Shown here: positions 2,658-64,000 of the stretch, one piece after another
Numbering within the stretch: position 1 is the first letter of the stretch
Layout of the letters: each line of letters opens with the position of its first letter
Assembly: GCA_951406725.2 (NCBI GenBank)
Contig: OX597825.1
Coordinates: forward strand, 66,774,001-66,838,000
DNA from: Octopus vulgaris
Taxonomy: Eukaryota
Length of the DNA: 64,000 bases
Direction of reading: 5' to 3'
The notes under the pieces: model-generated
The model's database searches: none
Told to the model about the DNA's origin: nothing
The model's input: only the letters and a program-made list of their open reading frames with translations
Position numbers and translations under genes: made by a program

Positions 2658-3388
2658 GTGTGTGTGTGTGTGTGTGTGTAGGCAAATCCATGAACAATAA
2701 AACAGTAAAGACAAAAGTTAATTGGTCACACGCAGTGAATGCATTAGATTTAAGCTCAGTGATGGTTTTAGATGGATAGATAAGAGTAGAAATGGCGTCT
2801 CTAGCATGCCCCACCGTCGGTTAGTGTAAGAAGTGCAGAGAATGTGAAAAAGAGGAAACAGAGGAATTGTCCGTAGAAAAGCACGTGTTATATAGACTTA
2901 CGCAGAGACAATCACGCGAACACACACACATATTTATACTTACATATTTATACTTTAACCTGATGGTGCTTTGTTTTACTGGGAAGCAATACTAATGCAT
3001 TGCGCAATCTAATAATTTTTCTATATATGTATGAATATACGACAGGCTTCTTTTAGTTTCCGTCTAACAAATCCATGTATATATGTATGTATGTATGTAT
3101 GTAGGTATGTATGTATGTATGTATGTATGTAAGTATGTATGTATGTATGTATGTATGTAAGTGCCATGTAGCCAAGGAGTTCAATTCGTTTCGCAAGCCC
3201 GAGATTACGAGTTCGAGTCTATTGCATTGCATATTGGATAAACGTCATTTTCCATAGCTCCAATGCAACCCATGGCTTACGGATGAAATAATGTAAAACA
3301 ACACTGTGTAGGCCATCGGGTTGATTGCACCCTTAATTCAAATGATGCATCCTTGTCAAACTTTGCATTACAGTAATTATCTTACGAA

Positions 3389-3637
3389 GGCGGTGAGCTG
3401 GTAAAGGCGGCGAGTTGGCAGAAACGTTAGCACGCCGGGCGAAATGCTTAGCGGTATTTCGTCTGCCGATACGTTCTGAGTTCAAATTCCGCCGAGGTCG
3501 ACTTTGCCTTTCATCCTTTCGGGATCGATAAATTAAGTACCAGTTACGCACTGGGGTCGATGTAATCGACTTAATACCTATGTCTGTCCTTGTTTGTCCC
3601 CTCTGTGTTTAGCCCCTTGTGGGTAATAAAGAAATAG
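3389..3637 (+). mobile_element. SINE family B (tail 1) with 16-bp TSD
   Basis: TSD GTAATTATCTTACGAA at 3373-3388 and 3638-3653. Confidence 0.9.
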
Positions 3638-3829
3638 GTAATTATCTTACGAATTACATTAAACGGTATCAGTTTCTGTGAAAGTCCCCACAAATAATCA
3701 GTTAAATCGGAAGCAGTTGGTCGAGTAAATGAAACCACATTTCCGAACAACAGGGATCCACTAACAGCACCATCAGCATCACCATCACTATCGTCACCAC
3801 AACCACAGTTGTTTGCTGTGTAGGTTACT

Positions 3830-4929
3830 TATGTTGTGTGCGGATAGTTATTTGTTTATCCGTGCTTTATCTGTGGTGTTCACTGAACACAGGTAGAGTG
3901 GGAAGACCTGGAATTCGGGAGAATTATTGTTTTGCTCATATGCCTGTGTCCACTCAGCGGAATCTGTCTAGTACTGGGGTCTCGTATTTGTTGTCGGTGA
4001 ATGGTCAGTCTATATCTTAGTGTAAGCTTAGTTTGACCTATGTACTCTTCATTACATCCTTGACATTTGATAGCGTATATTAAATTCCTTGAAGAACATG
4101 CAAAGTAATTCTTTACGGTAAATATCTGTCCTGATTTGAATTTGTATATTGTGTCTTCAATAAGATTGATGCAAGTCCCACAATTGGGGCGGCCACACTA
4201 TTTGATTGTTGGTGTAGGATTTGTGGAAGGTAATTAAGCACTTGTGAAGAATATTTTGAGAGACAGTGATTGTCTTTTAATCTTGACTATTTTGTGTATT
4301 TCGGATGTTTGTTTCATTCTTGGGTGTTGTCTTAGTAGTGGGATGTTTTGGTGGATAGTATTGTAATTCTTGGGTTGTGTATTGTAATAAAGGTTAGATT
4401 ATTGGATGTATCTGGAGCATTTTCATTTTTCGTAGTTTTTGGATATTTATTGCTTTCACATTTTCTATTCCGTTGTCAACTTTAATGGATATTGTCTTGT
4501 AAGCAGTATTTGTTTTACGAATTTCAGAGTTTGAGACAATTGTGCAGAATTGCTAGAGTAAAGAGAATATTATTCTTCGTATGTTTCAGAATGCATGCGG
4601 TAAACAATAAGTATTGTTTAGAATCTGTTTGTTTGTAGTGAATGTCTGTTTCAATGTTTTTATCTCTTTTGATGATATCCAGGAATGGTAGTTAAGTTTT
4701 ATTGTATTCCATGGTGAAGCTTATATCATTGTTTATGCTGATGTTAGAGGTTTTTGAAATCTGTAAGTTGTTCACATGTATGCGTCCATAGAATTAGGCA
4801 GCCATCTAGGTAACGTTTCCAGTTAGTAGATATTTGTGAAAGTCCAAGCCATATTTTGATTTTGAGTGTTCATATATCTAGACCTCCATGTAAGCTATGA
4901 CTAGATTATCGTAAGTCGGAGCAACTTTT
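3830..4929 (-). pseudogene. Penelope-like element remnant (RT C-terminal half + GIY-YIG endonuclease), disrupted
   Basis: Minus-strand translations: KVAPTYDNLVIAYME, WKRYLDGC (YxDD site), LPFLDII, IETDIHYKQTDSKQYL, CGRPNCGTC, NLIYAIKCQGCNEEYIGQT..RLTIHRQQI; stops and frameshifts present. Confidence 0.85.
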
Positions 4930-5162
4930 GTCAGCGTGCAATGAAAAGAAAACTGCAGACACATATATATATTTTCACACACACAAACACACACTCACAC
5001 ACACACACACTCACACACACACTCACACACACACACACAAACACACACACAAACACACACATATGAAAAACACGATCACATATATAGATGTATTTATCTA
5101 TCTATCTAACAATTATTATACACATACATACACAAATACATATGTATATATATATATATATA

Positions 5163-5940
<778 letters not shown>

Positions 5941-9243: not shown

Positions 9244-10773
<1,530 letters not shown>

Positions 10774-49307: not shown

Positions 49308-50994
49308 TATCATATTGAATATATATATATATATATTATATTTTATATACCATATAATATTATATGCATATATATATACACACACACATATGTACATACA
49401 CATACACACACATACACACACACACATATATAATATATATTATATATTATATTAGATATACATACATATACATACGCGCGCGCGCACACACACACACACA
49501 CACATATATGATTATGTATGTATGTATGTTTGGATAGAGAATTGAAAATTCATTTTTATCATACTATCTTAATATAAAATGTAATTGGATATTATAATTC
49601 TGTTTACATGTTTCATAATGCTTTCGCATAACAACTTATGATAGAGTATCTACACACACATACACACACACACAAGTACACGTGCGCGCACACAGTTATC
49701 ATCTGAGACGCCATGTGTCAATGACACCCATGTGTATAAATGTTGAGTTTTTTTACTTAGATGTTTATTATACAATCTTCAGTGGTCCTTATGTTTATTT
49801 TGCAACAAATAGAAGAGAGAGAGAGAGAGAGAGAAATGCCGCTCGTCAACGTGAAACCACAAACGTTGCAAAACCACAAAATGTATTTCAGAAATTTAAT
49901 TTAATTTAATTTACAAACTTCAAAGTAAACATGAAAGCTGCCGACTTTATGGCTCAAAGTATAACATCGGACACACAAGGAGAATTCTTTCTCTTCGGTT
50001 GACCATGCATTTAGCATCGCTAGCCATTGAAGCATAGACTGCGCACAGAACAAAATTGGATAGGGAGGCATTAATTCATATCACCCTCAAAATGTATAAA
50101 TTTTAAAATATCAAAAAATAAAAAAAAAGATCAATTATGACAGCATAATTAATAGCGAAATATAAACCAAGAATTCACACAGGTATAGCGATGTACCACA
50201 TATTAGTGAAATATGAAATGTAAAGGAATTAGCTTTTGAATAATTTTGTCCGGATTTTGTGATTTTATTAGTTACTAGCTTTAATACCCGGCGTTATCTC
50301 AACGTATGGTCTCAGGGAATCAATGTTAATGTTCTAAAGTAAATTATTTAAATTACAGCAGAGTTTCTTGGTAAACCTTTAGCAAAATTTCGGCGTTTTT
50401 GTTTCAAGTACCCAACGCCGGATCTTTATGTTTTAAACGAAGGCGATAGCATTTCTGCCAAGAATTCCTAAATCAAATTTCTTCGACACTCCTCTCGTTA
50501 TGTTTAGCCCTAATTCTAAACACTATCCATAAAACCGAAACCCAAATCCTACAGCCTAACTGCACAGCCTAACCATACAATGTAAACATTATACGTTTAC
50601 CCTAAACCTTAAATCTAAACTCTGACTCTATGCTTATATGTAAAGCATAACATTAATCCCTAAACGCTAACCTTAAATCCTAAAGCCTAGCTCTAAATCG
50701 TAAAACTAGATCCAAAATTACCTATAAAACATGAAATAGATGTCATTAATGGATTCACATTACTGCAATTCGACATTGCAGCAACTATTACATGCTTATA
50801 CACCTTCACTCCAAGCACTGCTGTAAAAGTGGAAGTGAGCTAGACCGTTAAAACTTAGTGTGCATGCACCACAGAGTTCACGATCAATCTGTGCCAAATG
50901 GTTTTACTCTGCGTTACTATGGCAATAGTCCGGATACTTATTGATCAGACCACGTATATATATATATATATATGATATAAATAATATATATATA

Positions 50995-51393
50995 TTCTTT
51001 TATTCTTTTATTTGTTTCATGACAGCGGCCATGCTGGAGCACCGCCTTTAGTCGAGCAAATCGGCCCCAGGGCTTATTCTTTGTCAGCCTAGCACTTACT
51101 CTATCGGTCTCTCTTGATAAGTGACGGGGACGTAGACACACCAGCATCGGTTGTCAAGCGATGTTGGGGGGACAAACACAGACACGCAAACATATATACA
51201 CACACACATATATATAGATATACATATATACGACGGACTTCTTTCAGTTTCCGTCTACCAAATCCACTCACAAGGCTTTGGTCAGCCCGAGGCTATAGTA
51301 GAAGACACTTGCCCAAGGTGCCACGCAGTGGGACTGAACTAGGAACCATATGGTTGGTAAGCAAGCTACTTACCACACAGCCACTCCTGCGCC
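50995..51393 (-). mobile_element. SINE family A, full length
   Basis: Family A match. Confidence 0.9.
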
Positions 51394-51477
51394 TATATAA
51401 AATATAAAATACCTGTAACTAGGTAAATAAAATCTTCGAACAGACGGTCAGTAGCGACACCTGCGGGTCTGACTACG

Positions 51478-51518: not shown

Positions 51519-52121
51519 ATGTCTGACTAGCAAGGTGAAGCCGATGACCTCCCCTGTTCGAAGGTTTGAAATGGACGCAGGTTCGTGTGTCAAATAGCTA
51601 GCTAGAGGCGATGGCCTCTTGGAGCTAATCAGCGACAGCTTTAGTCTTATATTTATAGACTACCATATTAGTATGGCGATAACTATTAATATCCAGTAAC
51701 GCTGCCGTAATCTCCTTTAGAGAGACTTAGTAATTTTAATATTTCTATTATTAAATATATATATATAACTGGGTAAGAACTTTCCTGTCATTGCTCCATA
51801 ACTTTCCCTTCTCGTTTTTGTCAAATGCATCCAATTATTTGCAACATCTTATTCTTTGTCGACCTTTGTTTCTTTGCGCATTCCTGTTGTTGTTTTATTA
51901 CATTATTCCACATTATTCCAATCCTAATGTTTTCATGGACATCAGTTTTCTTGTTGGAATTGTGGGCACGTGGCATTGAATGTAAACTATCTTTTATGGC
52001 TTAGGTTTATTTTGATTTGAAAATGGAATCCTTCCTCCTGGATGTTTACCGGCAGTTTTATTTCTTCTCGCTTTTTTTTGTCTTAGAAACTTGACAAGTT
52101 ACGAGTAACTATGTACTATTT

Positions 52122-52732
52122 TGAAGTATATTTACCACCTAAAGTGGCTAACCCTATGGGTCGATGCTACTGTAGTTTGTAGCCCCAGGAAGACATTTCC
52201 TCCAGCTGGCTATTGATAGGGCACAGATAGTGTGTCAATAGCCAGCTGGAGGAGATGTCTTCCTAGGGCTACAAGCTACAGTAGCATCGACCCTTAAGGA
52301 TTAGCCACATTTAGGTGGCAAATATACATCACGATGTCGAGCTGCTACTGTTTATAACTCGCTCAGAGATTTATTTTGCTTGTTCCCACTTTTTCGAGAT
52401 CACTGACTTTTCGTCACTGGATAAGTCTATATATTTGCATTGAGAACCACTTCCAATCGCCAATCGTTGGTTGTCACGCGCTGATGAGGGGTCAATACCC
52501 AGAAACTCGGGTCCGTGTGTATCACGTCAGGCTGGAGATGAGAACGATGACTTCCCTTTGCAAATACTGATATGGCACAGATAGTGTGTCAATAACCAGC
52601 TGGAGGAGATGTTTGCCTGGGGCTACAAGCTACAATAGCATCAGCCCTTAAGGGTTAGCCATATTTAGGTGGCAAATATACTTCACAATGTCGTGTTACT
52701 ACTGTATATATCTCGCTCAGAGATTTATTATA
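52122..52732 (+). mobile_element. Retrozyme/PLE-like non-coding element: inverted segment plus about 155-bp direct repeats around an HHR
   Basis: Inverted arm 52122-52217; direct repeats about 52220-52375 and 52575-52729; candidate TSD TACTATTT at 52114-52121 and 52733-52740. Confidence 0.75.
52475..52519 (+). ncRNA. Minimal type-I hammerhead motif, canonical core
   Basis: CACGCG-CTGATGA-G-GGGT(CAAT)ACCC-A-GAA-ACTCGGGT-C-CGTGTG. Confidence 0.8.
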
Positions 52733-52857
52733 TACTATTTGTTGATACGTTTCTTCGTATTTGATATCAGGAACTTCATCTATCAGTTTATGGGATATGA
52801 TAGTTTCCATGTCCATTCTTATTCTTAGTGGTTTGCCTTATATACAGGTTTCGATGT

Positions 52858-53045
52858 AAGGCACAAGGCTAGCAATTTCGCAGGAGGAGTAAGTCAATTA
52901 CATCGACCTCAGTACTCAACTGGTACATATTTCAACGACTCCAAAAGGAAGAAAGCCGAAGTCCACAACTGCGGAATTTGAACTCATGACGTAAAGACGA
53001 ACGAAATGCCGCTAAGAAATTTTCTCAGATGCTACGCCTTGCCTT
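52858..53045 (-). mobile_element. SINE family B (tail 2), diverged
   Basis: Family B match. Confidence 0.7.
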
Positions 53046-63269: not shown

Positions 63270-64000
63270 TTCTATGTTTGACTTTTGCTTTATATTTGTA
63301 CAAGTTGGCTCCAAGTCTCACCCAGAGACCTCAAGAGACAACAGGGTTGGAAGTTCATGTTGTTGTTATGCCTAGTGTGCCATATATTTGGGGGTGGGGA
63401 TGTTGTACTAATGAATGTCTAAAAAAAAAAAAAAAGGTTTTTTTTTTTTTTTTTTTTTTAAACCGAAAATTATGTTTGTTTTAAACCTTGAGATTACATA
63501 GAGAGTATTTTGCGTAGGATATGAGCAGTTCCCATGAGCACTATCTTTTGAACTTCTGCCATTTTTGGGTTTCCTGGTATCTGAGTTAGGTAGCTATCAG
63601 CCCCTTTTGCTATCATTCCCAGGGCACCTATGACAACAGGTATTGTTTTAGTCTTCAGCTTCCACATTTTGCTGATTTCTATTTCAAGATCTTTATATTT
63701 GCTCAGTTTTTGGTAGGTCTTGACAGATACGTTTATATCGATTGGGACAGTCATATCAATGAGGAGGCATGTTCTTTGTTTGAAGTTTTTCAATATGATG
63801 TCTGGCCTATTTGCATCTATCTTCCTGTCAGTTTGAATGGTGAAGTTCCAGAGGAGTGAGATGTGGTCATTTTCAAGCACTGGGGGTGGTTTGTGTTCCC
63901 ACCAGTTTTTTTTCATGGGGCAAATCCAGGTTTTTACAGATTACCCAGTGAATATATTGTGCAGCTCTATCGTGCCTGTTGAGATACTCTGTAGGCGCTA
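63270..64000 (-). mobile_element. 3' end of an R4/Dong-like non-LTR retrotransposon with restriction-like endonuclease, adjoining (AAT)n
   Basis: EYLNRHDRAAQYIHW, then a +1 frameshift in the A-run at about 63910, then WNFTIQTDRKIDANRPDIIL..CLLIDMTVP..KLSKYKDL..PVVIGALG (ORF 63494-63916); 3' UTR runs into (AAT)n. Confidence 0.9.

Follow-up and report, generated by a model that had tools for sequence, protein, structure and literature searches.

The enzyme that copies animal retrozymes has so far been proposed to come from Penelope-like elements (PLEs), and it is unsettled how the inverted ends and the one-sided tail of these elements arise. Both questions are raised by a mirror-ended stretch of 630 bases in Octopus vulgaris, located in the window (the whole stretch of DNA analysed, 64,000 nucleotides; contig OX597825.1, positions 66,774,001 to 66,838,000 of the forward strand): by which enzyme, and from which template, could it have been inserted, and why do its two ends differ? 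Its features are listed below by window position, with unit numbering starting at window 52211.

52110..52121, forward strand: candidate left target-site duplication (TSD), 12 nt, one mismatch to 52729-52740
52122..52216, reverse strand: inverted arm, about 95 nt, with the short (S) 3' end outward; unit 25 to 121
52211..52564, forward strand: old subfamily O, complete unit of 354 nt
52214..52216, no strand: TGA microhomology at the junction of the 5'-truncated arm ends, where the arms overlap
52214..52731, forward strand: direct arm, ending 3' at the long (L) site; it covers unit about 4-354 and, in a second passage, 1 to about 167
52475..52519, forward strand: type I hammerhead motif, recognized by core sequence and stems, with predicted cleavage after 52513
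52680..52690, forward strand: region of the S start on the second passage through the unit (about 116-126), placed by the end histogram and the predicted circular fold
52690..52731, forward strand: stretch of about 43 nt from S to L, the 'tail', on a single arm only
52729..52740, forward strand: right TSD, 12 nt, the first 3 nt of which double as the L end (microhomology)

Self-alignment reveals a direct repeat of 165 nt (52211-52375 and 52565-52729; 89% identity, period 354) on either side of a unique part of 189 nt (52376-52564), and E-values of about 1e-58 to 1e-62 show that this repeat structure is not due to chance. Identity of the inverted arm to the two direct copies is 91% and 86%, respectively, while the direct arm spans 518 nt, or 1.46 units. 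Most of this architecture had been recognized in the first-pass annotation: its inverted copy of about 95 bp is found as described, whereas its repeat (about 155 bp), period (about 355), unique part (about 200 bp) and 1.4 tandem monomers are present with the corrected sizes given here. The TSD it proposed also stands, except that its 8 bp constitute the perfect core of a duplication better read as 12 nt with one mismatch. The reported lack of coding capacity holds, as the longest ATG-started ORF is 28 aa, and the window element contains no RT or GIY-YIG ORF, the combination that characterizes an autonomous PLE. The left flank of the insertion is single-copy sequence. Elsewhere in the window, a non-LTR reverse transcriptase fragment lies at 9350-10390 (Pfam RVT_1, E 2.6e-29), and a 148-aa frame on the reverse strand at 63494-63940, with no Pfam match, presumably resembles the C-terminal region of a non-LTR retrotransposon. 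Common interspersed repeats at 50955-51400 and 52860-53034, which are assumed to be SINE-like and occur in many of the fetched loci, flank the insertion at a distance.

The hammerhead motif consists of stem I (CACGCG/CGTGTG), CTGATGA, stem II, GAAA, a two-pair stem III, and GTC ending at 52513. Every core base is present in the window copy; nevertheless, the earlier description of the motif as canonical has to be dropped, as the G-C pair at the base of stem II (positions 10.1/11.1) is replaced by G/A. Among the O family hammerheads, the same positions are C/A in 62/85 and G-C in 0/85. Rfam reports no hammerhead in the window copy, whether the threshold is the gathering score or E<=10. Shuffled versions of the 56-nt motif fold equally well (z -0.23), and the active topology of a 60-nt segment reaches -6.9 versus an MFE of -15.9 kcal/mol; as neither Rfam nor folding lends support, the call rests on core sequence and stems. 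The stem III loop is near-palindromic in the window copy and perfectly palindromic in a young subfamily, Y, the hammerhead of which has G-C at the base of stem II. By analogy, hammerheads with such a self-complementary loop are predicted to act as dimers, an architecture known for this type (PMC4209133). Dimeric cleavage, ligation by RtcB, and circles have been shown in other retrozymes (PMC7229834). A predicted circular fold is common to O and Y (z -3.9 and -7.0 versus 40 shuffles), and the joint fold reaches -74.3 versus a control mean of -49.6 (best control -63.3, n=60). The substitutions between O and Y lie within paired columns in 20/67 cases (170/358 columns are paired), with no excess of compensatory, double-sided pairs (6 versus a control mean of 3.7 and maximum of 7). 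In both single predicted folds, the S site is located at a small hairpin loop.

The unit is anything but single-copy: in the 2.8-Gb genome, where (TA)n is abundant, one of its 21-mers has 1,049 exact matches (reversed control: 0). The unique part, used as a genome query, gave 2,888 preliminary candidates (40 scored). In all, 144 distinct loci were mapped (143 of O and one, L137, of Y), selected by best similarity, exact motif, or listed position, including 11 chosen for paired motif matches. No ORF beyond the unit is shared by any of the 143 mapped O loci, so the unit is not always the terminus of a longer autonomous element. Since the arms of O differ from the majority sequence by a median of 7.9%, the subfamily is old. 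The window copy thus represents a dispersed hammerhead repeat without coding capacity, in the form of an old insertion with two arms truncated at their 5' ends; its age and single ribozyme make it a product rather than a likely source.

The ends of these copies are highly regular on one side only. The 3' ends peak at unit 121-125 (S) and 167-172 (L), about 43 nt apart, and the 5' ends are variable. The 144 loci comprise 61 two-armed insertions, all tail-out, and 83 in a single orientation, with no other arrangement. Both ends could be classified in 47/61 two-armed O insertions, which are S+L in 43 cases (p 1.4e-9 against 0.5), SS in three, and LL in one; the other 14 have an unclassed end. Random circular permutations of the unit, for which a search had been proposed in the first-pass annotation, do not describe these copies, given their fixed 3' and variable 5' ends. 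The tandem arrays sought alongside them do exist: 8/143 O loci pass the predicted cleavage site twice (in a selection that included the 11 paired-motif loci), and Y forms arrays of up to about six units on a single arm. In general, the interpretation as a retrozyme or mini-Penelope insertion is supported by the high-copy unit, the absence of a shared ORF, and the Penelope-type ends, and the PLE signature comes out stronger than described: the 3' ends are fixed at two sites, each two-armed insertion as a rule combines S with L, and the targets are AT-rich.

Templates starting at the cleavage site, which 0 double crossings in the first 55 loci would have allowed, were ruled out by longer copies. 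In the initial set of 30 O loci (L001-L030), 7/30 long arms have their 5' end between unit 148 and 154; this cluster is absent from the motif-selected O set and may be a sampling effect. The TA tract at unit 218-224 repeatedly receives unrelated insertions of about 190-1,030 nt (L051, L054, L057, and L058). Breaks at this position were considered as traces of a deleted ORF and rejected, as the inserts are unrelated and lie inside the TA tract.

The target sites provide a further footprint. Non-simple TSDs flank 16/43 S+L insertions of O versus 1.4 in mismatched-flank controls, with lengths of 12 (five cases), 13 (four), 9 (four), and 10, 15, and 16 (one each), i.e., 12-13 nt in 9/16. Among one-armed O copies, a TSD is rare (8/83, control 2.4). 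Ends lie in (TA)n in 27/86 cases in O and 65/74 in Y, and the remaining O flanks appear AT-rich by eye; the 12-13 nt stagger is readable in O because this subfamily often landed outside pure TA repeats.

An inverted arm might also result from fold-back and self-priming of a single strand, the short end being trimmed later by the endonuclease, with no second priming on RNA. Self-priming has been invoked to account for head-to-head palindromes of PLEs (PMC3846280), and resolution by the endonuclease to account for their tail (PMC8557442); fold-back likewise predicts variants common to both arms. Matched 5' ends would also be in line with it: those of the window copy are separated by about 21 nt in unit numbering, and the arm pairs of O match to within 30 nt in 15/40 cases (9.9 expected, p 0.03), a weak excess that may reflect either a weak fold-back signal or a sampling effect. 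However, in Y, which is a much cleaner set, the 5' ends are uncorrelated (7/34 pairs within 30 nt, 6.8 expected, p 0.53). Moreover, the longer arm in O may be L (27 insertions) or S (13), and one-armed copies end at S (45/83) or at L (26/83), which together make fold-back very unlikely as the source of the second arm.

Subfamily Y, first met at L137, has a unit of 353 nt that is 80% identical to that of O; a 25-mer of Y has 464 exact matches in the genome, and its arms show a median divergence of 0.85%. After two segmental duplicates were dropped, the set consists of 76 insertions, 42 of which are two-armed: 37 are S+L, five have an unclassed end, and none is SS or LL, so that all 37 classifiable insertions are S+L. 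With O and Y taken together, S+L accounts for 80/84 insertions, which argues against a random choice of site on two RNAs, as this predicts about half. The two arms of a Y insertion carry one haplotype: polymorphic states agree in 31/31 comparisons versus 19% on permutation (maximum 44%). The arms of O are 9.2% apart within one insertion versus 12.4% between insertions.

The preferred reading, to which a probability of roughly 0.7 is assigned, is that the window unit is an animal retrozyme inserted by the RT/GIY-YIG enzyme of a Neptune-type PLE through double priming on one, likely circular, RNA. Tandem copies would be transcribed, and their hammerheads, likely acting as dimers, would free monomers from the transcript, which a host ligase would close into circles. 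A Neptune-type complex might then bind the S-L region of one RNA and make two DNA cuts staggered by 12-13 nt, so that 3' overhangs remain. Each overhang would pair over a few bases and serve as primer, one of them at S, its counterpart at L; both cDNAs would extend upstream through the uncut ribozyme to variable stop points, and the two truncated cDNAs would be joined via microhomology, like the TGA shared by the arms in the window.

Private variants of Y at doubly covered sites (n=90) bear on whether the template was a circle. Eight recur in every pass of both arms, which gives a circle indirect support, including two variants found in 5/5 passes at L303 and a case of 4/4 passes at L337; six occur in both arms and in some passes; and 76 occur once. 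The once-only variants (76/90) and the partial-pass variants (6/90) are unexplained by a clean monomer circle. The six partial-pass cases are at L280, L292, L300, L310, L333, and L335, and in four of them the L arm agrees with the last pass of the S arm. They could stem from a template base changed or modified while being copied, from sequential arms, from a multimeric template, or from inter-arm repair. Assembled contigs from runs presumed to be RNA cover the unit; the head-to-tail joint of Y is present in three of them, and its presence also in a large unlabelled run used for DNA comparison means that it says nothing about circles.

These variants also bear on the possibility that a Penelope-type insertion started from an uncleaved linear multimer (or a multimeric circle) transcribed from a tandem array, the hammerhead being idle during copying. 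Ribozyme cleavage is dispensable for PLE insertion in vitro (PMC11167929), stem II of the O hammerhead is weakened, and at L310 the successive passes of the two arms (G, C, G, G and G, C, respectively) follow the pattern expected of a co-registered multimer. However, insertion-private variants that recur in all passes (L303 and L337) fit such a template poorly, since a source array fixed for a private variant should have several descendants, and the arms reach up to 2,125 nt in Y. A linear multimer is therefore considered unlikely, and double priming on one probably circular RNA is retained.

As to the enzyme, the genome contains many PLEs in which RT is followed by GIY-YIG, with a CxxxxCxxC linker. 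Penelope and Poseidon are described as having no such linker (PMC8557442), and the octopus elements are provisionally called Neptune-type on the basis of the linker, without a tree. GIY-YIG candidates number 6,136, of which 150 were scored and about 50 loci examined. The unit shows no similarity to the 3' regions of these approximately 50 GIY-YIG loci, nor, apart from separate neighbouring copies and L237, to 60 loci of the groups N5 and N6; because of the former result, homology does not name the partner. N5, a young, autonomous, Neptune-type element, has S and L ends of its own, about 30 nt apart, and is S+L at 4/4 loci with both ends seen, among 30 loci. The 3' end of N2 gave no match as a query, and N2 is excluded from the S+L tally.

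At L237 (positions 3031-5599; G000:C17 near 47.71 Mb), a truncated N5 arm stands head-to-head with a Y arm across a 7-nt filler; (TA)n is confined to the outside of the pair, with none between the arms. Divergence from the respective majority sequence is 0.7-1.1% for the N5 part (0.7% in the ORF) and 0.3% for the Y arm, compatible with a single insertion event. It is the single such chimera in the set of 76 Y insertions; unit 226, at which its Y arm stops, corresponds to neither S nor L. The (TA)n in which the pair sits forms the centre of an unrelated inverted repeat, each arm of which measures about 110 nt. Other putative links to a partner were discarded: L127/L131 and L137 are separate insertions, with (TA)n or about 600 nt in between, and at L288, where a co-insertion with the Neptune-type N6 was considered, the N6 part is 4.5% from its majority and thus older than Y, which is better explained by Y landing in N6. 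Fragments of O, Y, and Neptune-type elements often adjoin at a common (TA)n (L131, L137, L242, L251, and L269), with further loci of this kind at L304, L307, L340, L355, and L361. A young Neptune-type element, N1, is found at L121-L124, with many intact 781-aa frames and tandem repeats in its 3' UTR; the core of its 3' hammerhead-like motif starts with UUGAUAA versus CUGAUGA, and the cores of N5 and N6 are of the UUGAAAA type.

The unit might instead be a mere pseudo-LTR (pLTR) of an undetected autonomous PLE, its tandem copies being truncated partial tandems. Retrozymes of Xenopus match PLE pLTRs (bioRxiv 10.64898/2026.07.22.740005), and with 150/6,136 GIY-YIG candidates scored, a homologous PLE is possible as an ancestor. 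Against this stand the head-to-tail units, which close on themselves without a coding insert, the unrelated nature of the inserts at unit 218-224, inside the TA tract, and the fact that PLE protein matches near the loci are separate insertions. A pseudo-LTR origin is hence regarded as extremely improbable, and a retrozyme likely inserted by a Neptune-type enzyme remains the favoured reading.

Judged from its sequence, the element is a member of the animal non-LTR retrozymes, likely mobilised by a PLE, and behaves like a non-autonomous PLE. It has a short non-coding unit (the class spans about 150-400 nt), a type I hammerhead per unit, and, at the family level, tandems with two or more hammerheads. 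The metazoan non-LTR retrozymes described measure 350-390 bp in mussel and 330/350 bp in axolotl (PMC7229834), and the octopus unit is similar to them in its non-coding tandem unit of about 350 nt, structured predicted circle, type I hammerhead with a short stem III, and co-existing PLEs. The mismatch at the base of stem II in O resembles that of axolotl HHR_Amex2 (U-U), whereas most O copies comprise 1-2 units, unlike the long arrays reported there (PMC7229834). In mussel and axolotl, cleavage and circles were shown and the mobiliser was proposed (PMC7229834), while in octopus the insertion footprints were measured, and cleavage and circles are predictions from sequence. The same dependence on PLEs was proposed for retrozymes by Li, Clavereau, and Pollet from co-occurrence and pLTR homology, mainly in vertebrates (bioRxiv 10.64898/2026.07.22.740005). 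In octopus, the PLE loci examined show no pLTR homology, and the case is built on end structure. Li et al. require two hammerheads of an 'active' retrozyme, a label that therefore does not apply to the window copy with its one hammerhead.

The insertions themselves show the two fixed 3' ends, 5' truncation with an inverted copy, one-ended tail, and AT-rich or microsatellite targets typical of PLEs. Two RT start sites, an optional tail on one inverted end, partial tandems, a 5' inverted copy, and such targets are described for EN+ PLEs (PMC11167929, PMC3846280, PMC8557442), from which the octopus unit differs by the absence of an ORF and by a tail of about 43 nt versus 30-40. Its TSDs are mostly 12-13 nt, compared with 8-10 in Adineta Penelope (PMC3846280). 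The Anolis Poseidon element PAc has two internal RT start sites, a tail, and AT-rich cutting on both strands, and its protein is predicted to be a dimer (PMC11167929). In vitro, its start site was not found to differ between strands and cleavage is not needed, both of which count against the preferred reading (PMC11167929). In the portions of the EN+ PLE literature compared, no count corresponding to the near-strict S+L pairing was met (PMC11167929, PMC3846280, PMC8557442). Literature searches returned no octopus hammerhead retrozyme by title or abstract, and no paper on the PLE mechanism from 2023; the main text of the octopus repeat annotation contains neither 'ribozyme' nor 'retrozyme' (PMC13282606), and its supplements, or those of the preprint (bioRxiv 10.64898/2026.07.22.740005), may carry the repeat under another name.

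The tail at one inverted PLE end is already known, and PLE mobilisation of retrozymes has already been proposed. What the octopus family adds is an old wave, the 12-13 nt stagger, a conserved fold, the finding that an autonomous element also has S+L ends, and a single candidate for a mixed insertion. Taken alone, the window copy is an unremarkable fossil; its family, by contrast, yields predictions that can be counted: synthesis starting at two sites, each on its own strand; cuts staggered by 12-13 nt; a single template for every insertion; and an enzyme candidate. More tentatively, and with somewhat less than even confidence, double priming by one enzyme complex, at two structure-defined sites of a single RNA circle, may explain the inverted pseudo-LTRs and the one-sided tail of PLEs, the cassette and its fold may have been kept through two waves in spite of 20% turnover, and N5 might be the current engine of the family.
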